From contig CAYTZB010000001.1 in the NCBI GenBank assembly GCA_964442455.1, positions 21,910-85,909 of the forward strand: a DNA stretch of 64,000 nucleotides. Reading direction: 5' to 3'. This stretch comes from an uncultured Gammaproteobacteria bacterium. Its GTDB lineage: Bacteria; Patescibacteriota; Microgenomatia; UBA8517; JACQJR01. This document shows positions 959-57,049 of the stretch, in pieces (within the stretch, counting starts at the first letter, position 1; each line of letters opens with the position of its first letter). A model generated the notes under the pieces. That model worked only from the letters and a program-made list of their open reading frames with translations, had not been told where the DNA came from and ran no database searches. Position numbers and translations under genes: made by a program.

Positions 959-1727
959 TTATCTTACCCCGCTTCTTATAAAGGCTCCGGCGGCATGGGC
1001 TTTAATCCGTGCTAACGAGATACGAGCATTAGATAAAATAAATTTTGAATCGCCGGTTTTGGATGTAGGATGCGGCGATGGTTTAGTTGCCAAGGTTTTG
1101 CTGTCAAAAAGGAAAACAACGTTTGATTGGGGGATAGATATTTCTGAAAGAGAGGTACAAAAGGCAAAAAAGCTGAAGGTTTATAAAAATTGTAAAGTTG
1201 CCGACGTCTATTCATTGCCATTTGGAGATGAAACTTTCTCAACAGTTTTTTCTAATTCGGTAATTGAGCATATTCCCAATTTGGATAGAGCACTTTCTGA
1301 GATGTCCCGAGTTCTGAAGAGAAATGGACAACTAGTTATTACTGTTCCCTCACCCTATTTAGCTAAATATCTTGTTGGAACAAGAATGTTAGGTAACTGG
1401 TATGGTTTGTTTTTTAACAAACTCTTCAAGCACTACAATTTATATAATCATAAGCAATGGGCAAAAATTTTTAAGAAATACTCCTTAAAATTGGTTTTTT
1501 ATCACTACTATCATACGCCAGAAATGATTAGAGCTCATGAGTTGTTGTCCTATTTATCTCTTCCTGTTCACCTTGCAAAACCGTTTTTGGGGTACTGGCC
1601 TGTTTTCCCAAAAATGCGAAAAGTTTTTATTGTTCCTTGGTTAAGAAAAATACTTTATAGATTCTATCTTGATGATACAAAAATGGATAAAGGGGGATCT
1701 TTACTTCTTGTTGCTAAAAAATTCTAA
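936..1727 (+). CDS. Class I SAM-dependent methyltransferase (Methyltransf_11-like). Paralog of 24177..24965.
   Basis: 'VLDVGCGDG' motif I, then 'FSTVFSNSVIEHIPNL...VLKRNGQLVITVP'. The ORF-track start at 675 overlaps the GNAT gene; an ATG at 915 or 936 is more plausible. Confidence 0.65.
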   Translation: MRKKSPPDYLTPLLIKAPAAWALIRANEIRALDKINFESPVLDVGCGDGLVAKVLLSKRKTTFDWGIDISEREVQKAKKLKVYKNCKVADVYSLPFGDETFSTVFSNSVIEHIPNLDRALSEMSRVLKRNGQLVITVPSPYLAKYLVGTRMLGNWYGLFFNKLFKHYNLYNHKQWAKIFKKYSLKLVFYHYYHTPEMIRAHELLSYLSLPVHLAKPFLGYWPVFPKMRKVFIVPWLRKILYRFYLDDTKMDKGGSLLLVAKKF

Positions 1728-4339
1728 TGAAAGCTTTAAAAAAGTTTTTCAAAAATAACCTTTTCGTAATTTTTCTAATTTTTATCCTTACTTCTATCGC
1801 ATATGGGCAAACTCTTAAGATGTATTTTCTTATAGATGACAACGCATTAATTTATAAGCTTCAGCATATTAATGAGTACACAGGTTTTTGGGGAAAAGGG
1901 ATAATTGGAGAGGGTCCATATAGACACATTGTCGATCAATTTGTTCTCTTCTATCCCATTTTTGGCGTTAACACTGCTCCATACTTTATGGTAGGGGTAT
2001 TACTTTATTTTTTCGCAGGATTGGCATTATATATTTTTGTTAATTTTCTTACTAGAAATAAACTTATTGCTCTTGGTGCTTCTGCTATTTTTGCATCTGG
2101 GTATGTTGGTTCAGAAAGTATGTTTGGAATCGTAAATTCTTGGCAAACAACACGCGGAATTATTATGGCTCTTGTAACGTTTTTTCTATTTTATCATTAC
2201 ATAAAATCGAAAAATATAATTTTTTATTTACTTTCAGTAACTCTTTTCTTTTTCTCGCTTGACACAGTTTATATTCGCGCTCATGGATTAGTTTTCGCAA
2301 TTTTGTTTTTTGATATTCTGTTCTGGCCTGTTTTGCTCAAGGTGAGCTCCATAGTGCAATTTATTGTTAGGCAAACCCCTTTTTTGTTAATTCATTATTA
2401 TGTCTATTTTAGAGCCACCGCTTATGTTAAAAGTCTGGGAATCTTTGACTTTTTACACGATATTTTTGTTGATGGAAACTTCCTGATAGCTACAATACCA
2501 CTGCAAAATTTAGGGAATTTATTTATCCCAGATATGCTTACCTCTTATGTAAATAAAATAATCTCTGACTCTGTTGTTTTGCCAAATGAATTATCAATTG
2601 GATCAATTTTGGCAGGAATTTTTATTCTATTTTTATCCATTTACATTTTGTCAAGAAGTTACAAAAGTGAAAGATTTTTAAATAAAGTTTTAATATTTAG
2701 TCTCATTTTCTCTGTTGCAAATTTTATGGTTTTCTGGGCAAGAGAGACAAATCATACTCTTTGGACTACACATAGATATTTCCTTTATTCTTTTGTAGGG
2801 GTTTCTTTATTTTGGGCAACTGCTTTTTACCTAATATCAAAAAATTTAAGATTCAAAAATGCCCTGAAAGTTTTAACATTTACAGTTATTATCGTTTATT
2901 TATTTTTAGGCATAAATTATCAGAAAGAGTTTAACGAGCGCCGCAGTTTCCCCGCCCAAAAGTTTTTTTCAAGCTTTAAAAAATCGATGCCCAGTATTCC
3001 AAAAGAAGCAGTTATTTATTTTAATTTGATGAACGATAGGCGTATTCAAGGTGAATTTGGTAGCTTTTTTGGGGGAATGTTTTCAGAAGCAGGAAATCTT
3101 GCAATCCTTGGAGACGTTGATGATTACACAAGCGATTTTCTCGTCACATACGATATTAATGAAGTTAAAAGGTTTTTAGGCGAAGGCAAGACTAGTCTTG
3201 ATAAAGTTTTTACTTTTTACTACGGAGATGAAGGTTTAATTGATACCAGTCAAATTACGCGTGAGCTTTTGATAACCAGTAAGGAAATAACGTTAGATAC
3301 CCAACAGTTTTCTTCAAGTACATCCTTTAGAACTTCCGGTGGGGTTTTTACAACCAGCACACACTTTGAGGAATCAGGTGAATTTACAACAGGAGAAAAT
3401 CCCGTCGTGACAATTTCTGTTCCTGATAATACTCCTTCACTTGTTCCATCGGTTTTATCTTTTTCTATGAGTGTTAGTCCCAATATCACTCCATTACCAT
3501 ACCAAACAAAAGGTCAAAGTTTCGACATTGATAGCAAAGAGAAAAATAAAATTTTTTCTTATCTTTTATCACAAAATAATTTTCGCAAAACAGCAGTTGG
3601 TACTTCAGCCTCTTTTTGGAAAGAGCAAGAAGCTAAATTAGCGCTGGATGGGAGGCTTGAAACGGCATGGCGTGGACATAGGGGTTATTGGGATGACATT
3701 GATAGAAATATAACCCGCAACATTGAATATTTTCAGGTTGATTTAAGGCACATAGCAACTGTTGGACAAATAATGTGGGTTTCTGCCCAGCGCCCGCTTG
3801 TCCCGACCCATTATAAAATTTTAACGTCAACTGATGGTAAAGAGTGGCAGTTGGTGAAAGAGGTAACGGGCGGAAATGTGTTGCCCGAGGGAACAGTGAT
3901 CTTTGACTCTTTCAAACCAACACCCGCTCGATATTTGAAAATGGAGATACTCGCAACTTATGGCAATGACGGACCTGAAATAAAAGAGTTTGAAGTGCTT
4001 GAAAGCCGCTTTGCAGAATTAGACAGAAAAGTTGTTGAAAAAGTAAGGCAAGCTCCGTTTGCAGAGATAGAAACATTAAGCGATTTTAATAATGCTTGGG
4101 CATTCGTTCAACAAAATGCAAGTTTGCGGTTTTATTATCAGTCGAGCGCCGATGGCAAACAGGACGAGACAAGATATGTAGATATCCCTGTCGTTATTGA
4201 CGGTAAATTGCATCAGTACTCAATAGACCTTCCGGCAACAGGGATTAACTGGACACAATTTACAATTGGCGGCTTTAACTTTCCGGCAGAAATTAAAATT
4301 AGTTCACCAAGTATTATCTACAAAACTATACAGAAGTGA
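1727..4339 (+). CDS. Large polytopic membrane protein (putative GT-C fold glycosyltransferase) with Ser/Thr-rich linker and C-terminal F5/8 type C (discoidin) domain.
   Basis: About 12 N-terminal hydrophobic helices. C-terminus 'ETAWRGHRGYWDD...FQVDLRHIATVGQIMW...YKILTSTDGKEWQ...ARYLKMEILATYGNDGPEIKEFEV' matches discoidin/galactose-binding-like domains. Confidence 0.55.
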   Translation: MKALKKFFKNNLFVIFLIFILTSIAYGQTLKMYFLIDDNALIYKLQHINEYTGFWGKGIIGEGPYRHIVDQFVLFYPIFGVNTAPYFMVGVLLYFFAGLALYIFVNFLTRNKLIALGASAIFASGYVGSESMFGIVNSWQTTRGIIMALVTFFLFYHYIKSKNIIFYLLSVTLFFFSLDTVYIRAHGLVFAILFFDILFWPVLLKVSSIVQFIVRQTPFLLIHYYVYFRATAYVKSLGIFDFLHDIFVDGNFLIATIPLQNLGNLFIPDMLTSYVNKIISDSVVLPNELSIGSILAGIFILFLSIYILSRSYKSERFLNKVLIFSLIFSVANFMVFWARETNHTLWTTHRYFLYSFVGVSLFWATAFYLISKNLRFKNALKVLTFTVIIVYLFLGINYQKEFNERRSFPAQKFFSSFKKSMPSIPKEAVIYFNLMNDRRIQGEFGSFFGGMFSEAGNLAILGDVDDYTSDFLVTYDINEVKRFLGEGKTSLDKVFTFYYGDEGLIDTSQITRELLITSKEITLDTQQFSSSTSFRTSGGVFTTSTHFEESGEFTTGENPVVTISVPDNTPSLVPSVLSFSMSVSPNITPLPYQTKGQSFDIDSKEKNKIFSYLLSQNNFRKTAVGTSASFWKEQEAKLALDGRLETAWRGHRGYWDDIDRNITRNIEYFQVDLRHIATVGQIMWVSAQRPLVPTHYKILTSTDGKEWQLVKEVTGGNVLPEGTVIFDSFKPTPARYLKMEILATYGNDGPEIKEFEVLESRFAELDRKVVEKVRQAPFAEIETLSDFNNAWAFVQQNASLRFYYQSSADGKQDETRYVDIPVVIDGKLHQYSIDLPATGINWTQFTIGGFNFPAEIKISSPSIIYKTIQK

Positions 4340-6966
4340 AGAAACGTACTATCTCTTTAAGTTTGACAATCCTGGCTTTAATAATAGCCCTTAGCTTTGG
4401 TCAGGCAATCCAGTTTACTCTTTGGCAGGATGATAATGCTTTAATTTTTAAGCTTCAACATTTAGAAGAACAAGCTGGTGTCTTTGGGCCTGGACCAGCT
4501 GGACTTGGTGCGTATCGCTACGTTGTACTCCCATACATTCCAATTTATAAAGTTTTTGGAATGAACATACCTAATTTTTATTTGTATACACTTTTCTTTT
4601 ACTTTCTCGCCGCAGCATCGGTTTTTTTGTTAACGAAATATTTAACGAAAAATAATATTGTTGCTTTGTTGTCGTGCGCAATTTTTTCTGCCGGATTTAT
4701 CGGCTCTGAAGGGATACTTAGACTTTTTAACGGTGTTCAAACAAGCTACAGCGTTTTTTTCGTGAGTTCATTCTTCTTGTTACTTTACCGGTTTATTAAG
4801 ACAAAGCACGCTATTTATTATTTCTTAGGATTATTGTTTTACTTTATTGCTCTGGAAACAGCTTTTATTCGTACGCAATATTTAATTTTACCGACCGTAA
4901 TTTTTTTTATTTTGTTTCTGGATTGGGGGAAACGGCCCTTTATTTCTTTAGAAACAAACTTGTTTATTCTAAAAAATATATTTTTAGTTGTACCCTTTTT
5001 ATTTATTTATCGTTTTGTTTTTTTGCGTAGCTCCGATGCAAGGGCCGATTTGGTTAAGGATTATGTTATGGGCATACTAAATGGAAATTTAGACTACACT
5101 CATAGTTTTTTTGGGACATTGGGAAGTATTATTTTACCTGATCCTATTACAAACTTCTTGTTTGATGCTATTGGTAATCTCAGCTTAGATTACACAAATC
5201 GCTTGTTGATGTTGGAGCTTTTATTCTTGGGGATAAGCTTTATTATTATTAATTTTGTTTTTAAAAATATCCCCAAGATTACTCGTGTCCTAATCTTTTT
5301 TCCTTTGGTAATTTGGTTTGTCTTAGGAATGATTTACTTTCAAAACTCGGAGAAGATATTTGTCCATTCGGAAATTGTAGATACCCTTGGAGTTTTTGCG
5401 AATTTTGTTGGAGGACTGTTTATTATTATTTCAACCTCTATTTTGATAACAGCATTCAAGAAAACCGCGACCCGTAATGAACAAGTGGGAAAACTTTCTT
5501 TATTCCTTTTATCATGGCTTTTAGCAAATATACTGGCATATTCAATTTATCTACCGTTTTCTCCTCTTGAAAGTATAAATCGTTATCTTGTCCACTCCTT
5601 AGCAGCTTACGCAATATTTATCCCATTGTTTTTATATTATGCTTGGGGAAGAAGAGTTACTATTGTTCTCTCAAGTTTTATTGTTTTGACAAATATTTTT
5701 TGGTCTTTAGATTACCAACAAAGATTCATAGTTGAGAGGACGGTTCCTACACGTATTTTTTATCAAGATTTAAGGAAATTTATTCCAGAATTGTCAAAGG
5801 GTGCAGTTGTTTATTTTGATGTTGCAAATGATAAAGTTTCCGAGCAGCAATTTCGCGATTTTTTTTCAGTTGGCTCTATGCCCGACGAAACTGCAATAGC
5901 TATAAGGTATGGTATTGATAGATATGATTTCAAAATAACTAAAGATTTTAATGAATTCCTTTCCCTTATTCAAGATAAATCTTTAGATCTTACTTTTTCA
6001 TTTTTTTACGATTCCACTGGTTTAAAAAATACAACCAAAATAATGAGAGTGAATTTAGTTGGCAAAGAAGTCGAAATTGACAGTAAAAATTTAAGCAATT
6101 TATCTTTAGTGACACCAGGTATATTGGAATTTAGTGCTAAAGTCATTCCAAAGATTAGTATTAAACAAAACTGCCCAAATTTTCCCGGGGACAGAGTAAA
6201 TCTTTTTAACTACCTTTTGGCTCGTGATAATTTTTATAAAAATGTTAAGGTTCAAACAAGCTCCCAGGAGAAATATCAGGCAAATGATTTTTTGAAAGAT
6301 GGTAAGTTTAATACATTATGGAGAGGTAGTAGAGGATGGTGGCATGAGAATAAGAAAGAAATAGTGACAGTTGATTTAGGAAGTCCAAAAAAAATTAATC
6401 AATTAGTCTGGATTAATGGCTATGCAAATTCTACACCCACAAAATATAAGATAGAAGTATCATTAAATGGAGAGAACTGGGATGTAGTAAGGAGAGTAGA
6501 TTCTGGTGCCAGGAAGGAAAACACAGGCCTAGTTACAGATAATTTCGAAACTTTCAAAGCCCGTTACATTAGACTAATAATAGAGGAAACTTTTGACAAT
6601 GACGCTCCTGCAATTGGTGAAATTGAGGTTGTCGAGGAAGACTTTGAAGGTATTAATAAAGAGAAAATAGAGAAACTAAAAGAAATTGCTCTTTGTGCAA
6701 ATAATCTGGAGTCTTTAAATAGTGTTAATCAGTTCATAAATAAAATTGGCATAGAAGGAGTAGTTTCCTGGAAGACAGACAAGAGTAACGACAATGTTGT
6801 TAGATTAAGTCTCCAAGCAGATGGTCTTTATCATAGCTACAAAGTTTTTTTGCCAGCAGGGGGTACTAAACTAAACGATTTAGTAATTGAACCTTGGGTA
6901 GTACCAGTGGACATTTCTGTAATTGGTTTAAAACTTATCTATCCAAATAATCTGAAAACAGATTGA
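4336..6966 (+). CDS. Tandem paralog of 1727..4339: polytopic membrane protein (putative GT-C) with C-terminal discoidin domain.
   Basis: The N-terminal regions align ('DDNALIFKLQHLEE' versus 'DDNALIYKLQHINE'). C-terminal discoidin signature 'NTLWRGSRGWWHENKKEIVTVDLG...YKIEVSLNGENWD...ARYIRLIIEETFDNDAPAIGEIEV'. ATGA overlap with the upstream gene. Confidence 0.55.
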   Translation: MKKRTISLSLTILALIIALSFGQAIQFTLWQDDNALIFKLQHLEEQAGVFGPGPAGLGAYRYVVLPYIPIYKVFGMNIPNFYLYTLFFYFLAAASVFLLTKYLTKNNIVALLSCAIFSAGFIGSEGILRLFNGVQTSYSVFFVSSFFLLLYRFIKTKHAIYYFLGLLFYFIALETAFIRTQYLILPTVIFFILFLDWGKRPFISLETNLFILKNIFLVVPFLFIYRFVFLRSSDARADLVKDYVMGILNGNLDYTHSFFGTLGSIILPDPITNFLFDAIGNLSLDYTNRLLMLELLFLGISFIIINFVFKNIPKITRVLIFFPLVIWFVLGMIYFQNSEKIFVHSEIVDTLGVFANFVGGLFIIISTSILITAFKKTATRNEQVGKLSLFLLSWLLANILAYSIYLPFSPLESINRYLVHSLAAYAIFIPLFLYYAWGRRVTIVLSSFIVLTNIFWSLDYQQRFIVERTVPTRIFYQDLRKFIPELSKGAVVYFDVANDKVSEQQFRDFFSVGSMPDETAIAIRYGIDRYDFKITKDFNEFLSLIQDKSLDLTFSFFYDSTGLKNTTKIMRVNLVGKEVEIDSKNLSNLSLVTPGILEFSAKVIPKISIKQNCPNFPGDRVNLFNYLLARDNFYKNVKVQTSSQEKYQANDFLKDGKFNTLWRGSRGWWHENKKEIVTVDLGSPKKINQLVWINGYANSTPTKYKIEVSLNGENWDVVRRVDSGARKENTGLVTDNFETFKARYIRLIIEETFDNDAPAIGEIEVVEEDFEGINKEKIEKLKEIALCANNLESLNSVNQFINKIGIEGVVSWKTDKSNDNVVRLSLQADGLYHSYKVFLPAGGTKLNDLVIEPWVVPVDISVIGLKLIYPNNLKTD

Positions 6967-6997
6967 CTAGTGTAGAATGTCTTGTTAAACTCTTAAC

Positions 6998-7987
6998 GTG
7001 ACTCATGATATAGCAATTGTAGGTTACGGATACTGGGGGCCGAACCTTTTAAGGACCTTTATAAATATTCCAGATTGTACTGTACGTTATTGTTGCGATA
7101 TTGATGAAAAAAATCTGCAAGAAGTCAAGAGAAGATATCCTCATGTTCTGACCACTACTGATTTTAAAGAGATAATTTCTGATAGTAATATTGACGGTGT
7201 AGTTTTGGCAACACCAACGAATTCGCATTTTTTGTTAGCACAGCAGGCGATAAATGCCGGCAAGGATGTTTTGGTTGAAAAGCCAATGTCCACTACTTCC
7301 CAAGAAGCTCGAAAACTTGTTAGCTTGGCCCAAAAAACAAAAAGAATCTTGATGGTTGACTATGTCCTTTTGTTCAGCCCTGCAGTATTAAAAATTAAAG
7401 AATTGATAGACAAGGGAGAAATTGGAGAGATTCTGTACATCGATTCTACACGGACAAATTTAGGTCTTTTTCAAAAAGACAGTAATGTAATTTTTGATTT
7501 AGCATCCCATGAATTTTCAATAGTTCAGTTTATTTTAGGAACAAAACCAACAAAAGTAAGTGCAACTGGTAAATCACATATAAATGATCAGGTAGATGTT
7601 GCTTATATTACAGCAGAGTATCAGAAAAATATTATTGCGCATGTTCATATTAGTTGGCTTTCTCCGGTTAAAGTTAGGAGAATGCTTATTGTCGGAAGCA
7701 AAAAAATGATAGTTTATGATGATAACGAATCATCGGAAAAGATTAAGGTTTATGATAAAGGTATAGTTAGAGAGAAATCTCACAACGAGAATGGGCAAAT
7801 TGAGATAGGTTATAGATTTGGTGATGTCTGGTTGCCCCATATAGAAACAATTGATCCATTGACCTTTATGGCTCAGAGTTTTATTGATGCGGTTTCAAGT
7901 CGCAAAGTAACAAGAAGCGACGGAAAATTCGGCGCGGAAATTGTTGAAATTTTAGAAAGAGCAACTAAATTGCTTAACGCAAAGTAG
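6998..7987 (+). CDS. Gfo/Idh/MocA-family NAD(P)-dependent sugar oxidoreductase (WbpB/WlbA-like).
   Basis: N-terminal Rossmann motif '[12 protein letters not shown]', then 'EKPM' and the C-terminal GFO_IDH_MocA_C region. GTG start. Confidence 0.7.
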
Positions 7988-7994
7988 AACAAAA

Positions 7995-8471
7995 ATGATA
8001 ACAAAGGACGTTAAACTCGGGAAAAACGTAAAGATTTATCATCCAGAACTTGTTAATTTATATGGTTGCAAAATTGGTGCGGGTTGTATTATTGGTTCTT
8101 TTGTGGAAATTGGAAGAAATGTAAGTATAGGCCGCCGAGTTAAAATACAAGCTTTTGTATATATACCTGAAGGAGTAACCATTGAGGATGAAGTTTTTAT
8201 TAGTCCCCATGTATGCTTTACAAACGATAAATATCCAAGATCAACAAATCCTGATGGATCTTTGAAAAATGCCCAAGAGTGGGAAGTTATCCCAACTAGA
8301 GTTTGTAAGGGGGCATCGATTGGGGCTAATAGCACAATTATTTGTGGGGTTACAGTTGGAGAGGGAGCAATTGTCGGTGCAGGAAGTGTAGTGACTCACG
8401 ATGTTTTGCCATGGACCATTGTTGCTGGAAACCCCGCCCGCCTGATCCGTAAAATCAAGATCTCAAAATGA
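7995..8471 (+). CDS. Hexapeptide-repeat (left-handed beta-helix) sugar N-acetyltransferase (WbpD/WlbB-like).
   Basis: Repeated [LIV]-G-x-x-x-x hexapeptides ('[25 protein letters not shown]', '[28 protein letters not shown]'); 158 aa. Confidence 0.7.
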
Positions 8472-15245: not shown

Positions 15246-15260
15246 AATTTTGATTGAATT

Positions 15261-21720: not shown

Positions 21721-21823
21721 GATTATATACCTGTTTAACTTTAATCTGCACCTGCCTAATAATAAAAACAGGTATATACGAATACCTTAAAAGTTGCAAA
21801 TTAAACTAAGATGAGTATATCAC
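21721..21823 (-). promoter_or_regulatory. Conserved ~100-nt intergenic element, copy 2, in inverted orientation. Stem arms lie at 21724-21736 and 21766-21778, with TATAAT on the minus strand at 21722-21727. It sits upstream of the minus-strand GT2 gene and overlaps the start codon of the 21811 gene.
   Basis: The reverse complement of 21767-21823 is 54/57 identical to 16784-16840. A 13-bp perfect inverted repeat tatatacctgttt/aaacaggtatata flanks a 29-nt loop. Stem changes are compensatory relative to copy 1 (C/G to T/A). Confidence 0.55.
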
Positions 21824-28087: not shown

Positions 28088-28091
28088 TAAT

Positions 28092-29243: not shown

Positions 29244-29246
29244 AAG

Positions 29247-43738: not shown

Positions 43739-43755
43739 TCATCATATATGAATAT

Positions 43756-49396: not shown

Positions 49397-50522
49397 GACT
49401 GGCGTTTCATGGTATACGAGGAGTTTGGTACATGCCCTCCTCTTGCTTAATAAAAAAGATGAGTATTTCCTCTTCGGTGGTGCCATGCGCCGTTTGCCTG
49501 ATTTAAATCATTTTAGCAAGGACCTTGGAGGCGATTTCACAAAAAAGTTTTATCCACTTTCTCCCACGATACTTGATTTTTTATGGAATCGGCTTCACAT
49601 CTCTCCAATTGAAAACTTTGTAGGAAAAGTTGAAGTATTCCATTCTTCTGATTGGGCGCAACCTCCAGCGCGACGAGCAAAAGTAGTCACAACAATCCAT
49701 GATCTCGTTCCACTTTTATATCCTGAGAGTTCGCATCCTAAAATTGTGGCTGTGCATAAAAGACGGCTTGAGTGGGTAAAGAAAGAGTGTGAGCAGGTGA
49801 TAGCAGTGTCGGAGGCTACCAAAAATGACATCATAACTTATTTGGGAATTCCGGCGAAAAAAATTTCAGTGGTGTATGAGGCACCAGATGCAATTTATAA
49901 AAAAGTAGGCCGCCGGCCCGGAGAGGCTTCTCGCCGAGTCGGAGACTCTCCAGAGTCGGAGACTGGTTCGGAGGGGGATAAGAGAGTAGGGGAGGTAAAA
50001 AAGAAATTTGGTCTTCCACGACAATTCTTGCTTGCAGTAGGAGCAGACCCGCGAAAAAATCTGTCAAACGTGGCTCAAGCACTTACACTCATTCCCGATG
50101 CGCCAAAGTTAGTAGTTGTGGGAAGGAAGTGGAACGCACCCTCCTCCGCTAAAGCTTCGGATGGGCAAGGCAATATTTTATGGCTAGGACATGTTTCCAG
50201 GACGGATCTCACTGCCTTGTATAGTGGTGCACAAGCGTTGGTATACCCTTCCCTTTATGAAGGGTTTGGTTTGCCAATACTTGAAGCTTTTGCATGTGGT
50301 TGTCCGGTGGTAACGTCGAATATCTCAAGTATGCCTGAGGTAGCAGGGGATGCAGCGGTGTTGGTAAACCCAGAGGATGTTGATGATATAAGAAGAGGAA
50401 TTGAACGAGTGCTTTCAAAAAGAGAGGAATTCATTGAAAAAGGTTTTAGGCGAGTTAAAGAATTTTCGTGGAAGAAAACAGCCCAAGAAACTCTTAGAGT
50501 TTATCGTGAGTTGATACAGTAA
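49359..50522 (+). CDS. GT4 glycosyltransferase with a GC-rich repetitive in-frame insertion in the inter-domain linker.
   Basis: 'EGFGLPILEAFACGCPVVTSN' E-x7-E motif. Linker 'RRPGEASRRVGDSPESETGSEGDKRVGEV' is encoded by 49906-49998, which contains a 17-nt direct repeat. Confidence 0.6.
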   Translation: MKIGIDISQIVYETGVSWYTRSLVHALLLLNKKDEYFLFGGAMRRLPDLNHFSKDLGGDFTKKFYPLSPTILDFLWNRLHISPIENFVGKVEVFHSSDWAQPPARRAKVVTTIHDLVPLLYPESSHPKIVAVHKRRLEWVKKECEQVIAVSEATKNDIITYLGIPAKKISVVYEAPDAIYKKVGRRPGEASRRVGDSPESETGSEGDKRVGEVKKKFGLPRQFLLAVGADPRKNLSNVAQALTLIPDAPKLVVVGRKWNAPSSAKASDGQGNILWLGHVSRTDLTALYSGAQALVYPSLYEGFGLPILEAFACGCPVVTSNISSMPEVAGDAAVLVNPEDVDDIRRGIERVLSKREEFIEKGFRRVKEFSWKKTAQETLRVYRELIQ

Positions 50523-50540
50523 ATAATCATATATTCATAT

Positions 50541-51701
50541 ATGAATAACAATATGATAATCGGAATTGATGGAAATGAAGCAAATGTAGAAAGGCGTGTT
50601 GGATCAAATCAATATGCGTTTGAGTTACTGCATGCGCTGCACGATTTAAAAGAAGCACAAAAACATCAATGGATGATTTATTTACGTGATACTCCCCTAC
50701 CTGACATGCCCCAAAAAACTTCATGGTGGAAATATAAAGTCTTCGGGCCTAAACGTTTATGGACTCAATTTGCACTTCCCTTTGCACTTTTCTTTGGAAA
50801 ACGGCCCGATGTATTTTTTACCCCAGGGCATTATCGCCCTCGGTTGTCACCTGTTCCGACAGTCGTCTCCATAATGGACCTTGGGTATTTGCGATACCCC
50901 GAGCAGTTTACACGCCGTGACCTTTACCAGTTAACTTCCTGGACCGCTCACTCTATTAAAAAGGCAGACCATATTATTGCTATTTCTGAAAGTACGAAAA
51001 GAGACATTATTAGGTATTACAAAATTCCACGTTCAAAAATTACGGTTACGTATCCGGGTTATGACAAGTCAAAATTCGAAATTCGAATATCGAAATTCGA
51101 AACAAATAAAATAAAAACAAAATACAAAATTCAAAACGACTACATTTTATTTTTGAGTACACTTAAACCGAGCAAAAATGTCGAAAGCCTTCTTGAGGCT
51201 TTTAGGCTACTAGGGCACTGGGATACTGGGAGTAATAAACCCAGTATCCCAGCAACCCAGCAACCAAGTGACCTCAAACTCGTTATTGCTGGCAAAAAAG
51301 GATGGCTTTATGAGTCAATTTTTGAGAAAGTGAAACAGCTTGCGCTAGAGGATAATGTTATTTTTACTGATTTTGTACCAGATGATGATGTGCCACATCT
51401 CCTGGCAGGAGCGCGGGTTTTTGTACTTCCGAGTTTTTGGGAGGGATTTGGGATTCCGGTAGTTGAGGCGATGGCAGTAGGAACACCGGTTGTCGTCTCG
51501 ACAGTTGGGAGTTTACCTGAAGTTGTGGGAGATACAGGAATTTTAGTGAATCCCGACGATCCAAGAGATATCGCTCGTGGGATAAAAGAGGCTCTTAAAA
51601 ATCATGACGCATTATCCAAAAAAGGTTTAGAGCGTACCAAACTCTTCGACTGGCAAAAAACAGCTAAACAAACACTTGAAGTTTTAGAAAGAGTAACTTG
51701 A
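50541..51701 (+). CDS. GT4 glycosyltransferase with an AT-rich heptamer-repeat insertion in the inter-domain linker.
   Basis: 'EGFGIPVVEAMAVGTPVVVSTVGSLPEV'. Linker 'KSKFEIRISKFETNKIKTKYKIQN' is encoded by the repeats at 51073-51100. Confidence 0.6.
   Translation: MNNNMIIGIDGNEANVERRVGSNQYAFELLHALHDLKEAQKHQWMIYLRDTPLPDMPQKTSWWKYKVFGPKRLWTQFALPFALFFGKRPDVFFTPGHYRPRLSPVPTVVSIMDLGYLRYPEQFTRRDLYQLTSWTAHSIKKADHIIAISESTKRDIIRYYKIPRSKITVTYPGYDKSKFEIRISKFETNKIKTKYKIQNDYILFLSTLKPSKNVESLLEAFRLLGHWDTGSNKPSIPATQQPSDLKLVIAGKKGWLYESIFEKVKQLALEDNVIFTDFVPDDDVPHLLAGARVFVLPSFWEGFGIPVVEAMAVGTPVVVSTVGSLPEVVGDTGILVNPDDPRDIARGIKEALKNHDALSKKGLERTKLFDWQKTAKQTLEVLERVT
51073..51100 (+). repeat. Tandem heptanucleotide repeat (aattcga) x4, one unit variant (atatcga), inside a GT4 coding sequence.
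   Basis: Direct read: aattcga aattcga atatcga aattcga. Confidence 0.8.
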
Positions 51702-51726
51702 CAAGGAGAAAAATTTTGATATATTG
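51698..51726 (+). promoter_or_regulatory. Candidate sigma70-like promoter (TTGACA, 16-nt spacer, TATATT) upstream of 51739.
   Basis: ttgaca at 51698-51703 and tatatt at 51720-51725, 13 nt before the ATG region. Confidence 0.3.
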
Positions 51727-51738
51727 ACTATATAAATT

Positions 51739-52122
51739 ATGGGTAAAGATAGAGAACAAGGGATCGGGTTAAAAGAAAAAGTTCCTGGACTTGCTATGAT
51801 TACAGCAGGTGCAACGGGTTTATGGATAGGTTGGAAAGTTAATCAGTTATGGAGGAAAGCTGTAAATGAACATCCTTCGGGATCACGGTTAAGAGAAGTA
51901 GAGAGAGAATTATCCTCGTTAAGTAAAACTAATTTTGTAGGTTACCTAAATGAATGGTCACGAAATTTTGATGAGAAGGATCGATTAGAAACAGCAATAA
52001 AAGAAGATATAGATCCTTATAACTTTCGTCTGATTGGCAGTAGAGTACTACCTCTTGTTTCGGCTATAGCAGGAGCTGCGGGAGTGTATAGACTTCTTAA
52101 ACCAGGTAGGAAAAAGGGATAG
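51739..52122 (+). CDS. Hypothetical small protein with two TM helices.
   Basis: 127 aa, hydrophobic segments at residues ~18-38 and ~100-120. Confidence 0.35.
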   Translation: MGKDREQGIGLKEKVPGLAMITAGATGLWIGWKVNQLWRKAVNEHPSGSRLREVERELSSLSKTNFVGYLNEWSRNFDEKDRLETAIKEDIDPYNFRLIGSRVLPLVSAIAGAAGVYRLLKPGRKKG

Positions 52123-52167
52123 TTATTTGTCTTCTTCTCAGTAAACCTTTATGATATCTTCCTCGCT

Positions 52168-52815
52168 ATGAATGGCGGGGTTTTCTTGAATGCTGTTATA
52201 ATAAGATTATCTATGGCTGTTTTTCGTGATCGGATGGGGAGAGAGCTGAATCTCCGACAGGTTCAGGATAAGCTCGTAAACCGTCTCTATAATTATTTAG
52301 CTGATTTTGCCTTATTTTGGCTTCATTTACTTTGCAATTTTCCCTCCCATCATTTCCGTCGCTTTTTAATGCGTCTTGGGGGTGCAAGGATTGGTGCGGG
52401 TTCGAGCATTCATATGGGTTGCCGATTTTTTTCCTTAAAAAATTTAAAGATTGGGCAAGATTCAATAATTGGCGACCACGTGTTTCTTGATGGGCGGGCG
52501 CCTCTTGCGATTGGAAACCACGTTGATATTGCTTCACAGGTGCTTATCTATAATTCAGAGCATGATGTGCATTCAGACGATTTTAGACCTACCGTGGGGC
52601 CAGTTGAAATAGAGGACTATGTATTTGTTGGACCGCGGGCAATAATCTTACCAACCGTCAAAATAAAGAAAGGTGCGGTTGTTGCTGCGGGAGCGGTCGT
52701 AACAGAGGATGTTCCTGAATTTGCAATTGTTGGAGGTGTGCCGGCAAAGGTGATTGGTGAGAGGAAAAACAAAAATCCAAACTATCGGCTTGGTCGCGCA
52801 AGACTTTTTCAGTAG
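52168..52815 (+). CDS. Hexapeptide-repeat acyltransferase (WcaF/NodL-like putative sugar O-acetyltransferase).
   Basis: 'IGAGSSIHMGCRF', 'IGQDSIIGDHVFL', 'IGNHVDIASQVLI' and 'VGPRAIILPTVKIKKGAVVAAGAVV' repeats. Confidence 0.65.
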   Translation: MNGGVFLNAVIIRLSMAVFRDRMGRELNLRQVQDKLVNRLYNYLADFALFWLHLLCNFPSHHFRRFLMRLGGARIGAGSSIHMGCRFFSLKNLKIGQDSIIGDHVFLDGRAPLAIGNHVDIASQVLIYNSEHDVHSDDFRPTVGPVEIEDYVFVGPRAIILPTVKIKKGAVVAAGAVVTEDVPEFAIVGGVPAKVIGERKNKNPNYRLGRARLFQ

Positions 52816-52819
52816 AAAT

Positions 52820-53392
52820 ATGAAAGTCATCAAATTTTTACTTTTAACCTTATTTGTTATCGCTTATACTTTTTTTTCAGGAATTTTTCTTTTTTATATC
52901 ATACTTCCTACGCCTCCTTTCCCGAGCAATCCTCCCGACTCTTTAGAGTCTACTGAGCGGGGAGACACCGAAGATTATAAAAACCGACGAGCTTATTTTA
53001 CTGATTTATCACGCGAGGAGGTTCTTACATATCATCAGAAGGAACTAAGTACCATAAGCTGGAGAAGTTTTAACATTCCTATCCCAACTTACAGGCTTAA
53101 TTACCCCCCAGAAGATGCAGCTATATTTATTAAAGATTTGACCCGAAGCGTTTTTTTGGAGGAAATAGTTCACCCCTTTAGGGAGTCGTTTTTTGTCAAC
53201 GGTTTTGTTGCGAAACAGCCAAAAGATGCAATCATAATCGAAGGGCGAGAATTTCAACAAAAAATTACCGTTCGGTATTACAGAAGTAATACATATCTAA
53301 GAGTTTCACTTGCTGCTTTTTCCCTTGGTTTGTTACTTCTCGTGATGCGTTCGTGGTACAAAACTCTTTTTAGAGCAAATGGAAATAGTTGA
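52820..53392 (+). CDS. Hypothetical membrane-anchored protein (N-terminal TM plus extracytoplasmic domain).
   Basis: The start was moved to ATG 52820 to avoid a 62-nt overlap. One N-terminal helix, a proline-rich segment and a C-terminal helix. Confidence 0.4.
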   Translation: MKVIKFLLLTLFVIAYTFFSGIFLFYIILPTPPFPSNPPDSLESTERGDTEDYKNRRAYFTDLSREEVLTYHQKELSTISWRSFNIPIPTYRLNYPPEDAAIFIKDLTRSVFLEEIVHPFRESFFVNGFVAKQPKDAIIIEGREFQQKITVRYYRSNTYLRVSLAAFSLGLLLLVMRSWYKTLFRANGNS

Positions 53393-54275
53393 TCTTTCAA
53401 TAATTATAGTGTCGTATAACACAAAAGGGTTACTCCTTGAGTGTCTTTCCTCAATTCAAAAACACACAAAGGAAGTAAGTTATGAGGTAATTGTAGTGGA
53501 TAATGCATCGAAAGATGGAAGTGTAGCTGCGCTACAAAAGTTGGAGGTAGCAGGTAAAAAGTTACAAGTTATTGCAAACAAAGAAAATTGGGGATTTGGG
53601 GCGGCAAATAATCAGGGGATGAAGAAGGCAAAGGGACGTTATATTCTGCTTCTTAATTCGGATACAAAATTAATTGAAAATTCTTTACTTAGTATGGTGA
53701 TGTTCATGGATGAGCATCCTAAAGTTGGCATTGCCAGTTGCAAATTAGTGAATGCCGATGGTACGCTCCAGACAACAGGCGGATTTTTCCCGACCTTACC
53801 GAGAGTGTTCTTGTGGGCAACACTCATTGATGATGTACCATTTGTAGGCGATTTTTTTGGCTCGTACCATCCCCATAAGTTGTTTTACTCAAAAGAACGG
53901 CCGCTTGATTGGGTAACAGGAGCATTTTTTTTAGCGAGACGAGAGGTTACCAGCGAGATTGGTTTGTTTGATGAGCGCTTCTTTCTCTATGTTGAGGAAG
54001 TTGAATATTGTATGCGGACTAGGAGCAAGGGATGGGAGGTGTGGTACGTTCCACAAACAAAAATAATCCACTTCGGGGGGGCAAGTGGAACAAGAGAGGG
54101 AACGGTTCTTCGCGAGTTCGAAGGTTTAAAAATCCTTTACAAAAAACATTATTCAAAGGTGAGCCTTGTCTTTTTACGCCTTTTCCTTTTTATAGGAAGT
54201 GTTCTTCGTATGTTTATTTTTGGTATCATTACACCAAGGAGTAGGATTTATGTTCACGCGCTTGGTAGAATTTGA
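53379..54275 (+). CDS. GT2 glycosyltransferase (paralog of 58356..59294).
   Basis: 'LSIIIVSYNTKGLLLECLSSIQKH...VIVVDNASKDGS' and 'NSDTKL'. Confidence 0.7.
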   Translation: MEIVDLSIIIVSYNTKGLLLECLSSIQKHTKEVSYEVIVVDNASKDGSVAALQKLEVAGKKLQVIANKENWGFGAANNQGMKKAKGRYILLLNSDTKLIENSLLSMVMFMDEHPKVGIASCKLVNADGTLQTTGGFFPTLPRVFLWATLIDDVPFVGDFFGSYHPHKLFYSKERPLDWVTGAFFLARREVTSEIGLFDERFFLYVEEVEYCMRTRSKGWEVWYVPQTKIIHFGGASGTREGTVLREFEGLKILYKKHYSKVSLVFLRLFLFIGSVLRMFIFGIITPRSRIYVHALGRI

Positions 54276-55605
54276 GAATTTTATTTTTAAATGGGGTCTG
54301 GCGGTAATTTTACTTGCTATACCTTTATATCCTAAGTTTCCTCTTTTTAATATACCGGGAACGTATGTTGCAGTGAGAATGGAAGATATTTTGCTTGCGG
54401 CTCTTGGGATATTTCTTTTGTTAAAAGTAGTACAAAATCATCGCTCTTTTTTTCAGAGCAGCATTACCCGTGCATTCTTTCTGTTCTTTGCGGCAGGGTT
54501 GGTGTCAATTGTGGCCGGTATCTTTTTAACCCATACCGTTGTACCACATATAGGACTGCTCCATTGGGTAAGAAGGATTGAATACGTTGTTCCTTTTTTT
54601 CTTGCGTACAGCTTCGCGCGGGTAGAGCGGCATGCATATTTCTTTATTGAGGTGCTTCTGGTTGCCGCGTTCTTAGTGTTTTTGTATGGGTTAGGGCAAA
54701 TCCATTTTGGCTTTCCGGTGATTTCAACCCAAAATGCGGAATTTTCGAAAGGATTGGCACTCCGATGGTTGCCGGGAGCGCGGCTTCATTCGACGTTCGG
54801 GGGACATTATGATTTGGCAGCATTTTTAGTGCTTGTCCTTCCGCTGGGAATTGCGTACCTTTTTGCGGTAAGGAATATTGTAGGGAGAGCGGTTATCTTT
54901 GGTGTTACTCTCTGTCTTTTGTGGCTGCTTGTGACTGCTGCCTCTCGGATTTCCGTCGCAGCGTACTTTCTAGGACTATTGGTAACTCTTTGGTTCTTGA
55001 AGCGACGAGTCTTTTTAGTGTATATGATAGCCATAAGCATCGCGTTTGTACTTACTTCGGATTTGGCTGGCAAGTATAAATTTACTCTACAGCAGCTATT
55101 CGGAAGAGTCGAGATAACAAGAATTGCGTGGGCGCAAGAAGAGAAGCTCTCTCCTACTCCCGTTCCCCCACCACCAATTTTCGAAGACCGCTCAACTGCA
55201 ATTCGTCTGAATGTTGAATGGCCGAGGGCATTGCGTGCGTTCTTTAAGAATCCTCTACTGGGGACCGGATTTTCCTCCATCACCCTTGCAACCGATAATG
55301 ATTACCTTCGCATGTTAGGGGAAGTGGGGGTGGTGGGCACGCTGGCGTTTTTCCTTGTGTTGGTAAGAATCGGACAAAAAATGTGGAAATTCCTACGGGA
55401 GTTTCGGCCAAACGGGGGCACTCTTGCCTCCCAAGATGTGTTGGTTGTGGGGGCAGTAGGGGGAGCAGTGGGACTGCTTGCGAATGCGGCATTTATTGAT
55501 GTATTCGAGGCCTCAAAGGTGGCACTTATATTTTGGACACTTCTGGGGATATCGGTAGGAATTATTAATACGCGTATGAAGAGGGAGAGTCGTGAAGAAA
55601 ATTAA
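54250..55605 (+). CDS. O-antigen ligase/polymerase-like (Wzy_C family) polytopic membrane protein.
   Basis: About 11 helices and a large loop with 'ATDNDYLRMLGEVGVVGTLAF', resembling the Wzy_C/WaaL 'HNxYLxxLxExGxxG' motif. The start was moved from 54199 to ATG 54250. Confidence 0.5.
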   Translation: MFTRLVEFENFIFKWGLAVILLAIPLYPKFPLFNIPGTYVAVRMEDILLAALGIFLLLKVVQNHRSFFQSSITRAFFLFFAAGLVSIVAGIFLTHTVVPHIGLLHWVRRIEYVVPFFLAYSFARVERHAYFFIEVLLVAAFLVFLYGLGQIHFGFPVISTQNAEFSKGLALRWLPGARLHSTFGGHYDLAAFLVLVLPLGIAYLFAVRNIVGRAVIFGVTLCLLWLLVTAASRISVAAYFLGLLVTLWFLKRRVFLVYMIAISIAFVLTSDLAGKYKFTLQQLFGRVEITRIAWAQEEKLSPTPVPPPPIFEDRSTAIRLNVEWPRALRAFFKNPLLGTGFSSITLATDNDYLRMLGEVGVVGTLAFFLVLVRIGQKMWKFLREFRPNGGTLASQDVLVVGAVGGAVGLLANAAFIDVFEASKVALIFWTLLGISVGIINTRMKRESREEN

Positions 55606-57049
55606 TAGAATAATAAAAAGGTTAGTAAAACCAGAGTATCTTTTGTTGGTGCTCATTCTTCTTATTGCACTGTGGGCCCGTCTTTACAAAATAGATAATC
55701 CTGTTGCCGACTGGCATTCTTGGCGACAGGCAGATACCGCCTCAGTCACTCAATTTTATGTTGAGCGCGGGATTGATTTACTTCGTCCTCGCTATCTTAA
55801 TATCTCAAGCAGTGCCACAGGATACGAGAATCCTAAAGGTTACCGATTTGTTGAGTTCCCCGTTTTCAATGCTGTACATGCACTCCTTTATCAGGCATTT
55901 CCTTCCTGGTCACTTGATCGATGGGGTCGACTCATCGCTGCTACTGCTTCGATTATCTCACTATTCTTTATCTTTTTAATTGGCAAACGATTTTTAGGGA
56001 CTGCGGTGGCTTTACTTGCTGCACTCTTTTTTGCCATTCTTCCCTTCAATGTTTATTTTTCCCGCGTCATACTTCCCGATCCTTTGACTGTTACTGTTGC
56101 AATTGTAAGCTTATGGTTTTTTGTCTGGTGGATTGATACCGAGCGGTCATGGAAGCTGTTTACCTCGGCATTCTTTTTTGCGACGGCCCTACTTCTTAAA
56201 CCTTACATTGTTTTTTATAGCATACCGATGCTTTACCTTGCAGTGACAAAATATGGTGTGTGGGGAGCAGTGAAAGAGGCAAAACTATGGATGTTTTTTT
56301 GTCTCTCACTTATCCCGGTTTTCTTCTGGCGTGCATGGATGGGGCACGATTATTACTTTGTGGGTATTCCTTTTTGGGAGTGGGCATTTAATGGAGATGA
56401 AATTAGGTTTAAACCCTCATTTTGGTGGTGGCTCTTTGGACAGCGTCTGGGATTGCTCATTTTAGGAGGATGGGCGCTTGTTCCATTTGTCATTGGACTG
56501 CTGTCTCCTTCCCGTGGGAAGTTCCCCTGGTTTGTACACTCTATGCTTGCGGGACAGTTGTTGTACATAGCGGTTGTGGCAACCGCAAATGTGCGACACG
56601 ATTACTACCAAACACTGCTTATTCCCGCAGTTGTCCTTCCTCTCGCGAATGGAACGTATTTGTTATGGCGGCTGCGTGCGTTCAACCAATTTCTTACCCG
56701 CGTGGCGGTGTTGGGGACTCTTGCAGCAGGATTGGCATTTTCTTTTTATCAAATTAAAGAGTTTTATAAAGTTAATCATCCCGAGATTATGATTGCCGGC
56801 GCCGCAGCTGACCGATTATTACCAAAAGACGCAAAAGTCATAGCTCCCTACAATGGTGATACCGCATTCTTGTATCAAACGAAACGTCAAGGGTGGCCGG
56901 TTGCGACGCTCCCCATGGACCAAATGATTAGTCGGCTTGATGCCGAGTATTATGTATCGGTCAATTACGATGCACAGACGAAGGAGGTAATGGAAAAATA
57001 TACGGTGCTTGAGAAAACAAATGAGTATGTGGTGGTTAAACTAAAATGA
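55592..57049 (+). CDS. GT-C glycosyltransferase of the PMT/ArnT-like family.
   Basis: 'LLIALWARLYKIDNPVADWHSWRQADTASVTQ' first-loop motif; 485 aa, about 11 helices. Confidence 0.55.
   Translation: MKKINRIIKRLVKPEYLLLVLILLIALWARLYKIDNPVADWHSWRQADTASVTQFYVERGIDLLRPRYLNISSSATGYENPKGYRFVEFPVFNAVHALLYQAFPSWSLDRWGRLIAATASIISLFFIFLIGKRFLGTAVALLAALFFAILPFNVYFSRVILPDPLTVTVAIVSLWFFVWWIDTERSWKLFTSAFFFATALLLKPYIVFYSIPMLYLAVTKYGVWGAVKEAKLWMFFCLSLIPVFFWRAWMGHDYYFVGIPFWEWAFNGDEIRFKPSFWWWLFGQRLGLLILGGWALVPFVIGLLSPSRGKFPWFVHSMLAGQLLYIAVVATANVRHDYYQTLLIPAVVLPLANGTYLLWRLRAFNQFLTRVAVLGTLAAGLAFSFYQIKEFYKVNHPEIMIAGAAADRLLPKDAKVIAPYNGDTAFLYQTKRQGWPVATLPMDQMISRLDAEYYVSVNYDAQTKEVMEKYTVLEKTNEYVVVKLK

Follow-up and report, generated by a model that had tools for sequence, protein, structure and literature searches.

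A conserved locus dense in GT-C-type membrane proteins and its probable role in envelope-glycan assembly in a Microgenomates bacterium

Gene content of the locus

The subject of this analysis is a glycan locus on a 64,000-nt stretch of DNA (contig CAYTZB010000001.1; the window) from a groundwater Microgenomates bacterium, an uncultivated member of the candidate phyla radiation (CPR) with a tiny genome. The studied interval (positions 1727-57049, about 55 kb) encodes 14 large polytopic membrane proteins which are linked here to the GT-C superfamily of glycosyltransferases (GTs). Their genes, which the list of open reading frames (ORFs) places at exactly the coordinates given in an initial annotation of the sequence, are 1727-4339, 4336-6966, 11867-13372, 13419-15245, 18194-20317, 21811-24174, 24966-26423(-), 31401-33479, 33463-36546, 36857-38809(-), 39005-41632, 44574-46034, 47933-49396 and 55592-57049, where (-) marks the reverse strand; genes are named below by their first coordinate. 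Together they sum to 28,650 bp, or 52% of the interval.

The window as a whole is 97.8% coding with 53 genes, and a tRNA scan of it found none. Pfam scans, which covered essentially all window ORFs of at least 150 aa, show every gene that could be assigned to a family to be glycan-related, the exception being 16264 (DUF5667); the genes left without a family are the orphan 60493 and the small ORFs 29247, 36534, 51739 and 52754. The same scans find two Wzx flippases, one Wzy_C gene and five GT2 genes besides three synthase-like ones, in agreement with the initial annotation. It had also counted seven GT4 genes within the interval: all seven exist, with three of them (57169, 59313 and 61939) lying past position 57049. 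Absent from it were seven methyltransferases, an amino-sugar module (6998-10701), a sugar dehydratase (15261), acetyltransferases, carbohydrate-binding module (CBM) domains of the CBM32 type, a gene for a 129-aa membrane protein and a ManC-like gene.

Base composition changes along the window, with a G+C content of about 0.32-0.36 across 1-38 kb and 0.38-0.44 across 38-64 kb. The two halves of the locus on either side of the step at about 38 kb may have different histories.

Fourteen GT-C-type proteins in four groups

A common plan underlies the 14 proteins, in which a first transmembrane (TM) segment at the extreme N-terminus is followed by a loop of 50-70 aa and a helix bundle, beyond which most of them have a large soluble C-terminal domain. 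By the Kyte-Doolittle scale each has 6-12 TM segments, a crude measure that does not fix the exact number. All 14 begin with a K/R-rich N-terminus that lacks D/E, and the segment behind TM1 is acidic, a pattern consistent with the N-terminus inside and the first loop outside the membrane. An acidic residue follows shortly after TM1 in all 14. In family alignments built from database homologs, it is 100% conserved as D37/D38 in the family of 1727 (A1), as D40 in that of 33463 (A2) and as D34 in that of 39005 (A4), and the family of 24966 (A3) has E37 at 89% and D50 at 92% conservation.

Family models recognise a minority of these proteins directly. Five of the 14 pass a Pfam gathering score, four with PMT_2 (PF13231, threshold 26.1 bits; 18194, 21811, 47933 and 55592) and one with PTPS_related (36857). 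Two more have sub-threshold matches, 31401 to PMT (20 bits) and 44574 to PMT_2 (19.3 bits) and GT87 (17.2 bits), and the remaining seven are without any Pfam membrane-domain match; for PMT_2 itself, the nine proteins other than these four and 44574 give no match. NCBIfam searches with the ten hardest ORFs returned weak MmpA matches and irrelevant ones only. Neither a MIR domain nor a C-terminal WWDYG-type domain as in STT3 was found by Pfam.

When sequence comparison, profile alignment with hhalign and structure prediction are combined, each of the 14 is linked to GT-C by at least one test, and all of them are GT-C-type proteins by fold or by family. On their sequences they sort into four deeply divergent predicted groups (I-IV), three of which lie outside the current Pfam and NCBIfam models at gathering thresholds.

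Group I comprises 1727, 4336, 31401, 11867 and 13419. The product of 1727-4339 (870 aa) consists of a membrane domain (residues ~1-420) and an extracytoplasmic domain with a CBM32 (profile E 3e-12). In Foldseek searches with its AlphaFold (AF2) model, which has a mean predicted local confidence (pLDDT) of 89.7, the C-terminal part matches CBM32 folds and the whole chain matches AftD (6wbx, 6wby and 6w98, E ~1e-6) and STT3 (8pn9, 5.7e-6), so that the top membrane-enzyme match is a solved AftD. The neighbouring 4336-6966 is a paralog (phmmer 1e-88 against 1727; hidden Markov model (HMM) of A1, 6e-243) with a CBM32 of its own (F5_F8_type_C, 60.6 bits) and the motif WQDDN after TM1. The third CBM32 protein, 31401-33479, carries the module at its C-terminus (F5_F8_type_C 58.8 bits; A1 HMM 1e-24; hhalign 99.0%) and QQDEW after TM1. 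The two shorter members lie side by side: 11867-13372 (501 aa, 9 TM, no CBM) matches A1 with 5.5e-13 in the HMM search and 97.7% over 442 columns in hhalign, and 13419-15245 (608 aa), which has two extra N-terminal TM segments and a YNDD motif at ~118-120, matches it with 5e-7 and 96.5% over 423 columns. The presence of CBM32 modules on 1727, 4336 and 31401 argues for a glycan as the acceptor.

Group II is formed by 33463, 39005 and 36857, all of them with a C-terminal TM segment. The protein of 33463-36546 (1027 aa, invariant D40) belongs to a family of more than 320 homologs and is called AftD-like here because of its orthologs: the AftD model PF11847 (GT-C_AftD) is matched by 11 of 29 full-length ones (47-64% identical, best E 3.5e-8), and 33463 itself gives no match at E <= 0.1. 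A second AftD-like enzyme, 39005-41632 (875 aa, invariant D34), stands for a family of 1,471 cluster representatives, and its A4 profile aligns with A2 at 99.9% (E 1.5e-32, 773 columns). The third member, 36857-38809(-) (650 aa), is joined to A4 by hhalign (93.7%, 397 columns). The initial annotation had seen a YfhO N-terminal signature in it; YfhO (PF09586) is not matched, and PTPS_related (33.6 bits) is the sole family reported at E <= 0.01. Matches of 39005 (28.8 bits) and 36857 (21.6 bits) to the NCBIfam MmpA family are weak and far below its cut-off.

Directly downstream of the AftD-like gene lies 36534-36923, coding for an orphan membrane protein of 129 aa with 4 TM segments; at its 3' end the gene shares 66 nt with 36857-38809, which converges on it. 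A protein with 36-61% identity to it follows the AftD-like gene immediately in 21 of 25 related loci, with invariant W20, Y46, F47, P49, W99, R102 and Y106 and the motifs LLRSAGYFxP and WAERT. Searches of Pfam, NCBIfam and the PDB found no counterpart, and an identity as a GtrA or SMR protein is not supported. It could be a candidate flippase for polyprenyl-phosphate sugars or a subunit of the AftD-like enzyme.

Group III consists of 24966 and 44574. The first (24966-26423(-), 485 aa) belongs to a family that neither Pfam nor NCBIfam models and has no sequence match itself, and its assignment comes from an AF2 model (pLDDT 93.2, predicted TM-score (pTM) 0.92). The 30 best Foldseek matches of this model are all GT-C-type enzymes or related membrane proteins of the endoplasmic reticulum, including DPY19, AglB, ArnT, STT3, PglB, ALG12/9/3, AftA/B, Pmt1/4 and EmbB/C, with query TM-scores of 0.5-0.59 for the leading ones. 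The second (44574-46034, 486 aa) is tied to A3 by hhalign (96.9%, 387 columns). The closest solved fold to 24966 is the C-mannosyltransferase DPY19. Three clustered histidines are invariant in the A3 family (H302, H304 and H305 in the motif FHPHHLNY) and could form a metal site or an acceptor site.

Group IV contains the PMT_2 proteins 18194-20317 (36.5 bits), 21811-24174 (787 aa, 29.6 bits), 47933-49396 (63.3 bits, and PMT 25.6 bits) and 55592-57049 (43.2 bits). Three of them had been described as carrying the PMT/ArnT 'DE' motif in the first loop. The motif is present after TM1 in 18194 (SWDEP) and 47933 (WHDEA), and 55592 has D residues there and no literal 'DE'. Both 47933 (59 bits, below the cut-off) and 55592 match the NCBIfam subfamily 'flippase activity-associated protein Agl23'.

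The distance between the groups is considerable. Across them, hhalign gives 0.8% for A1 against A3, 1.3% for A3 against 47933 and 5% for A4 against 18194, so that the groups are not joined by sequence profiles alone; A1 against the PMT_2 protein 47933 reaches 70%. Since the A1 profile finds only CBM32 domains among solved structures and the A2 profile finds nothing, there is no direct sequence bridge to the solved GT-C enzymes. In all-against-all BLASTP and phmmer comparisons the sole clear pair is 1727/4336 (26% identity), other pairs being insignificant or marginal.

That the 14 are transporters rather than GT-C proteins was considered and rejected on the fold matches from Foldseek and on the hhalign links, against which the Wzx and Wzy_C proteins, used as controls, score 0.2-0.3%. 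The GT-C identity proposed in the initial annotation has thus withstood the refutation test set in that annotation, which was a lack of GT-C similarity or a transporter identity.

Candidate donor synthases and sugar supply

Three GT2 genes had been read as DPM1/GtrB/ArnC-like, and their best solved relatives are indeed dolichol-phosphate mannose synthase (DPMS), ArnC and GtrB. The first, at 2-358, is the C-terminal part of a soluble 235-aa GT2, a predicted DPMS-like polyprenyl-phosphate mannose/hexose synthase that is whole in a Logan contig of the same strain (L001:57-764). The whole protein has Pyrococcus dolichol-phosphate mannose synthase (5mlz, E 5e-34, residues 3-216) as its best solved relative, followed by ArnC and GtrB, and its NCBIfam matches are PgfS/ArnC/AglJ-like and below equivalog cut-offs. 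Two independent Logan assemblies of the strain (L001 and L030) stop about 55 nt upstream of this gene, which suggests a repeat or a strain-variable junction just beyond the start of the window.

The second synthase, 10698-11840, is fused to a hexapeptide acyltransferase (Pfam Hexapep, aa ~17-140) that precedes the GT2 part (Glycos_transf_2, aa ~148-358). The latter matches ArnC (2e-13 over 148-358), GtrB (4e-12) and DPMS (7.5e-10) in the PDB, making the protein a candidate polyprenyl-phosphate amino-sugar synthase. It is encoded by a single ORF with a TTG start and a 4-nt overlap with the preceding aminotransferase gene. The third, 21001-21708(-), is again a soluble 235-aa protein, closest to ArnC (9e-17 over 5-214), DPMS (9e-15) and GtrB (3e-13) in the PDB; in NCBIfam it reaches 93.5 bits with AglJ and is aligned with PpgS over positions 4-213 of 226, end-to-end with both. 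PgfS is among the top NCBIfam matches of two of the GT2s. The clade to which the three are closest is thus that of the DPMS/ArnC/GtrB polyprenyl-phosphate sugar synthases. Of the other GT2s, 30474 and 47091 are best matched in NCBIfam by cytoplasmic GT2s of the exopolysaccharide type.

Each synthase adjoins two GT-C genes, in the orders GT2(2-358)-1727-4336, 9568-10698-11867-13419 and 18194-GT2(21001)-21811. The initial annotation had seen a synthase-then-GT-C logic repeated many times. The pairing stands for these three modules, with three donors that would serve 14 transferases in place of many repeats.

The second module continues a set of amino-sugar nucleotide genes at 6998-10701, consisting by Pfam of an oxidoreductase (6998), a hexapeptide N-acetyltransferase (7995) and two DegT aminotransferases (8468 and 9568). 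The oxidoreductase resembles UDP-GlcNAc 3-dehydrogenases (UDP-GlcNAcDh_Arch, 174 bits, below the equivalog cut-off), and 9568 is ArnB/PseC-like (PseC 342 bits; ArnB 325 bits against a cut-off of 631). Further along, 15261-16214 encodes an NAD-dependent sugar 4,6-dehydratase/epimerase (Pfam Epimerase/GDP_Man_Dehyd; LegB-like, 206 bits), and a ManC-like mannose-1-phosphate guanylyltransferase (GMP_PMI, 185 bits) begins at 63196 and is cut by the window end.

Conservation in related genomes

The family searches lead to named homologs in Candidatus Daviesbacteria, Blackburnbacteria, Woesebacteria and 'Patescibacteria group', and complete genomes of relatives measure 820,589 bp and 810,692 bp. Twenty-five loci with an AftD-like gene, from species-representative genomes of Daviesbacteria, Woesebacteria and Blackburnbacteria, were compared with the window. 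Where the flanks are complete, a core order recurs: a group I GT-C (31401 in the window, the first gene of the core), the AftD-like GT-C, the small ORF, a GT-C of ~650 aa on the other strand, an A4-like GT-C and a Wzx. Per ~23 kb, these loci encode between 5 and 10 polytopic proteins with a length of 400 aa or more. Clear synteny is limited to the core at 31-46 kb, and the content of the flanks varies among relatives.

In one Daviesbacteria locus (L003 15380-17086, likewise in L004 and L007), a carbamoyltransferase (Carbam_trans_N/C) and a TMEM260_N/PMT_2 protein lie beside the core. The window has neither gene at the corresponding position, so that what flanks the core differs between species. 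Many of the metagenome-assembled genomes with the core are titled 'uncultured Gammaproteobacteria bacterium' (L005-L029) and one (L023) 'Candidatus Woesearchaeota archaeon', labels which are probably placeholders or wrong.

Conservation of the locus thus extends across the class, and it is neither peculiar to one genome nor the result of a recent expansion. The initial annotation had spoken of a large paralog expansion, and 14 GT-C proteins in one locus do bear out the density it described. The term is misleading, as the 14 are ancient and nearly unrecognisable to each other, with 1727/4336 as the only recognisable paralogs, and as the core order is kept across the class. A recent expansion of paralogs is rejected on these grounds.

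A two-phase model of envelope-glycan assembly

We favour, with a probability of roughly 0.6, the explanation that the window holds most of a conserved envelope-glycan locus whose product is assembled in two phases, akin to mycobacterial arabinogalactan and lipoarabinomannan (LAM). The product would most likely be a methylated, amino-sugar-containing surface polysaccharide; we infer its sugars, the donors, the acceptor and the order of the steps. In the first phase, nucleotide sugars would be made in the cytoplasm by the ManC-like enzyme (GDP-mannose) and by the UDP-GlcNAc 3-dehydrogenase, aminotransferase and acetyltransferase set, with further supply from the 4,6-dehydratase and the ArnB/PseC-like aminotransferase. 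The seven GT4 and five GT2 enzymes would then assemble a lipid-linked oligosaccharide, to be tailored by seven S-adenosylmethionine (SAM)-dependent methyltransferases and several acetyltransferases. The two Wzx proteins would flip this glycan and the Wzy_C protein would polymerise or ligate it.

In the second phase, the three soluble DPMS/ArnC/GtrB-like GT2s would put single sugars onto polyprenyl phosphate, which some factor would flip across the membrane. The putative donor of the 14 GT-C proteins is accordingly a sugar linked to polyprenyl phosphate (or diphosphate), as judged from the three co-encoded synthases. On the outside, the 14 would move those sugars onto the growing glycan, presumably with one linkage each, and the CBM32 of three of them would hold the glycan acceptor. 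Three donors would thus apparently be shared among 14 transferases, in the manner of mycobacteria.

Several points weigh against this model. The link to AftD is weak in sequence, with 33463 lacking a PF11847 match and the A2 profile finding no solved structure. The best NCBIfam scores of the synthases are 60-94 bits against equivalog cut-offs of 529 (ArnC), 370 (PpgS) and 325 bits (AglJ), and the sugar enzymes likewise score far below theirs, so that any sugar named for them is tentative. No priming phosphoglycosyltransferase (Bac_transf or Glycos_transf_4/MraY-like) and no Wzz is found in the Pfam-scanned 64 kb, nor is there a GtrA/ArnEF-type flippase among the scanned ORFs, so the pathway is incomplete there and parts of it must lie elsewhere. 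In other systems, proteins or lipid A are the acceptors of PMT_2-type enzymes, and some of the 14 may therefore act on something other than the polysaccharide. There may also be several independent pathways rather than one line. The whole case is built on sequences and models.

The strongest competitor, which we regard as unlikely, is that the locus serves mainly protein glycosylation. The GT-C enzymes would then use polyprenyl-phosphate donors to attach sugars to Ser/Thr (or Asn/Trp) of secreted surface proteins such as S-layer proteins and pilins, and would extend these glycans afterwards, in a manner resembling O-mannosylation by actinobacterial Pmt/Ppm1 or the archaeal Agl pathways. CPR cells carry S-layers and pili, four of the ORFs are PMT_2 proteins with 47933 matching PMT as well, 47933 and 55592 match the archaeal Agl23 subfamily and 21001 is nearest to AglJ in NCBIfam. 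In structure, 24966 comes closest to enzymes that modify peptides (DPY19, AglB, STT3 and PglB); however, Foldseek likeness within GT-C does not tell the type of acceptor, and the MIR and WWDYG-type domains are missing by Pfam. The window as scanned with Pfam encodes no candidate acceptor protein, be it an S-layer protein or a pilin, and the CBM32 modules, the AftD-like enzymes, two Wzx, Wzy_C and twelve cytoplasmic GT2/GT4 enzymes favour a polymer over short glycans.

Somewhat less probable still is a mosaic of side-by-side pathways without a single product, such as mannosylation, the synthesis of a Wzx/Wzy capsule and the Arn-like addition of amino sugars to a lipid or a teichoic-acid-like polymer. 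Three separate modules of synthase and GT-C, two Wzx, genes on both strands, the G+C step after ~38 kb and clear synteny for the 31-46 kb core only would all fit such an arrangement. By contrast, the almost fully coding window with its glycan-related families (bar 16264) and without tRNA genes, and the retention of 5-10 GT-C-like genes around the same core in relatives, are better explained by one locus, and a single Wzy_C together with the lack of a priming enzyme speaks against several self-sufficient pathways. Finally, that many of the 14 are not transferases at all, acting in lipid delivery, as MmpA- or Agl23-like proteins associated with flippases, or as inactive scaffolds, is very improbable, since the weak matches of 39005 and 36857 to MmpA (a corynebacterial membrane protein required for trehalose-lipid transport, PMC11175481), those of 47933 and 55592 to Agl23 and the lack of a polyprenyl-phosphate-sugar flippase in the window scans, which favour it, are countered by scores that fall far short of what the families require (210 and 126 bits), by the acidic residue that all of them keep at the position of the GT-C catalytic one (invariant in A1, A2 and A4) and by large conserved extracytoplasmic domains and CBM32 modules that fit glycan-acting enzymes.

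Comparison with known systems

The nearest overall analogue of the two-phase model is the synthesis of arabinogalactan and LAM in mycobacteria and corynebacteria, where many linkage-specific extracytoplasmic GT-C enzymes (EmbA/B/C, AftA-D, MptA-C and PimE) act on a polymer built on a lipid carrier and draw on few donors, namely decaprenyl-phosphate arabinose and the polyprenyl-phosphate mannose made by Ppm1. The locus is alike in the few such donors proposed for its many GT-C proteins, in the CBMs in large extracytoplasmic domains and in the AftD-like proteins. AftD and Emb carry carbohydrate-binding modules, and the small 4-TM protein beside the GT-C genes is reminiscent of mycobacterial Rv3789. 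The differences are substantial. The window comes from a CPR phylum with genomes of ~0.8 Mb and has all 14 GT-C genes in one locus rather than scattered; it contains Wzx and Wzy_C, seven methyltransferases and CBMs of the CBM32 (discoidin) type; and a sequence search with the A2 profile does not reach any solved AftD or Emb structure. Genes for decaprenyl-phosphate arabinose (a UbiA-type phosphoribosyl pyrophosphate transferase and DprE1/DprE2) are not among the Pfam matches of the window ORFs.

The Arn pathway of Gram-negative bacteria is mirrored by the gene order of the second module, in which an ArnB-like protein (9568), an acyltransferase fused to an ArnC-like GT2 (10698) and two GT-C proteins (11867 and 13419) correspond to the steps of amination, N-acylation, loading onto undecaprenyl phosphate and transfer by a GT-C enzyme on the outer side. 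Unlike in that pathway, ArnA (formyltransferase/decarboxylase), ArnD and ArnE/F are missing from the window scans, the scores are far under the equivalog cut-offs, the acyltransferase is of the hexapeptide-repeat type and fused to the GT2, and the adjoining GT-C proteins belong to an undescribed family and not to ArnT/PMT_2. If CPR bacteria are without lipopolysaccharide, the acceptor cannot be lipid A.

In the GtrA/GtrB/GtrC modules for glucosylation of O-antigen and the related CsbB/GtcA/YfhO and PgfS/PgfM systems of Gram-positive bacteria a GtrB-like GT2 works with a polytopic transferase of the GT-C type, and such genes adjoin each other in the window as well. These systems differ from it in their GtrA/GtcA flippase, which was not detected in the window, in the single transferase that stands against 14, and in YfhO, for which 36857 offers a PTPS_related protein; GtrB moreover has two C-terminal TM helices that the soluble 235-aa GT2s of the window lack. 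Protein O-mannosylation (eukaryotic PMT1/2/4 and TMEM260, or actinobacterial Pmt with Ppm1) has counterparts in the window in a ManC-like gene, in a DPMS-like synthase and in 18194 and 47933 with their PMT_2/PMT matches and DE motif. It is unlike the window in that no MIR domain and no acceptor proteins were found and in that most of the 14 do not belong to the PMT family by sequence. As for the Wzx/Wzy pathway, Wzx (16920 and 41634) and Wzy_C (54199) are present, and the priming enzyme and Wzz were not found in the window.

At the level of superfamilies (GT-C, the DPMS/ArnC/GtrB clade of GT2, Wzx and Wzy_C) the genes are thus members of known families, and the locus as a whole falls outside each of the named systems. 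Full-text literature searches on glycosylation and envelopes of CPR, Patescibacteria and Microgenomates gave no description of it. The nearest paper, on a Saccharibacteria genome, mentions a GT87 enzyme and Dol-P-Man synthases (PMC6031116). The locus is mechanistically unsurprising, and its interest lies in the density of GT-C genes and in what it implies for the envelopes of CPR bacteria.

Implications for CPR envelopes

Members of the CPR have very small genomes and probably live attached to other cells. To our knowledge, the chemistry of their envelopes is essentially undescribed. With half of the DNA of the locus devoted to extracytoplasmic GT-C proteins, a heavy investment in a complex surface glycan is suggested, made by a two-phase logic like that of the mycobacterial wall. 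A bolder proposal can be made tentatively, with the odds against it: Microgenomates, and perhaps other CPR bacteria, would build a lineage-defining heteropolysaccharide of arabinogalactan-like complexity with at least 14 GT-C enzymes, spending ~7% of a ~0.8-Mb genome on it. Three unmodelled families would be involved, that of the CBM32-bearing 1727, that of 24966/44574 and that of 39005 with its AftD-like relative and the dedicated 129-aa partner. If this is true, attachment to hosts or resistance to phage might depend mainly on this polymer in these episymbiont-like cells.

The locus is for now beyond testing in culture. It nevertheless provides three candidate polyprenyl-phosphate sugar synthases, four GT-C groups and the pair of AftD-like enzyme and small partner as targets, and the alignments from this analysis could become new family models. 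Even if the enzymes glycosylate proteins, the locus would still be among the densest GT-C clusters known to us.

Cytoplasmic and remaining genes

The genes between and beside the GT-C proteins are mostly glycan-related and were assigned by Pfam. The window opens, after the truncated GT2, with a GNAT acetyltransferase (377-958; Acetyltransf_10/1/7) and a SAM methyltransferase (915-1727; Methyltransf_11/23), which has 270 aa as called in L001, the mechanical ORF starting at 675. Further methyltransferases are located at 20307-21023 and 24177-24965(-), in the mixed-strand block 26469-31337 (26469-27314, 27275-28087 and 29782-30477(-)) and at 43756-44577, giving seven class I enzymes in the locus, a number which suggests that the product may be heavily O- or N-methylated. 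The block at 26469-31337 also contains a GT4 (28092(-)), a 191-aa membrane protein (29247(-)) and a GT2 (30474(-)).

The first Wzx-type flippase is encoded at 16920-18197 (Polysacc_synt, 71 bits), and the second (41634, Polysacc_synt) opens the group 41634-44577, in which a GT2 (42902) and the last-named methyltransferase follow. A GT4 (46054) and a GT2 (47091) occupy 46054-47936. The forward-strand stretch 49359-54275 comprises two GT4 genes (49359 and 50541), the small ORF 51739, a WcaF-like O-acetyltransferase (52168, also from NCBIfam), a 212-aa membrane protein (52754) and a GT2 (53379). It is followed by the O-antigen polymerase/ligase-like Wzy_C protein with 12 TM segments (54199-55605, 46.7 bits). 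Past the end of the studied interval, 57169-64000 holds GT4 genes at 57169, 59313 and 61939, a GT2 at 58356, the orphan 60493(-) and the ManC-like gene; an exact-protein look-up for 61939 returned no record. In total, three acetyltransferases accompany the fourth acyltransferase domain that is fused to the GT2 at 10698.

Between the dehydratase and the first Wzx gene, 16264-16770 encodes the small DUF5667 protein, the product of which has an N-terminal hydrophobic segment and is likely secreted or anchored. Among the GT4 genes near the window end, 60493-61731(-) encodes a soluble protein of 412 aa without a match in Pfam or NCBIfam, which could be a regulator.

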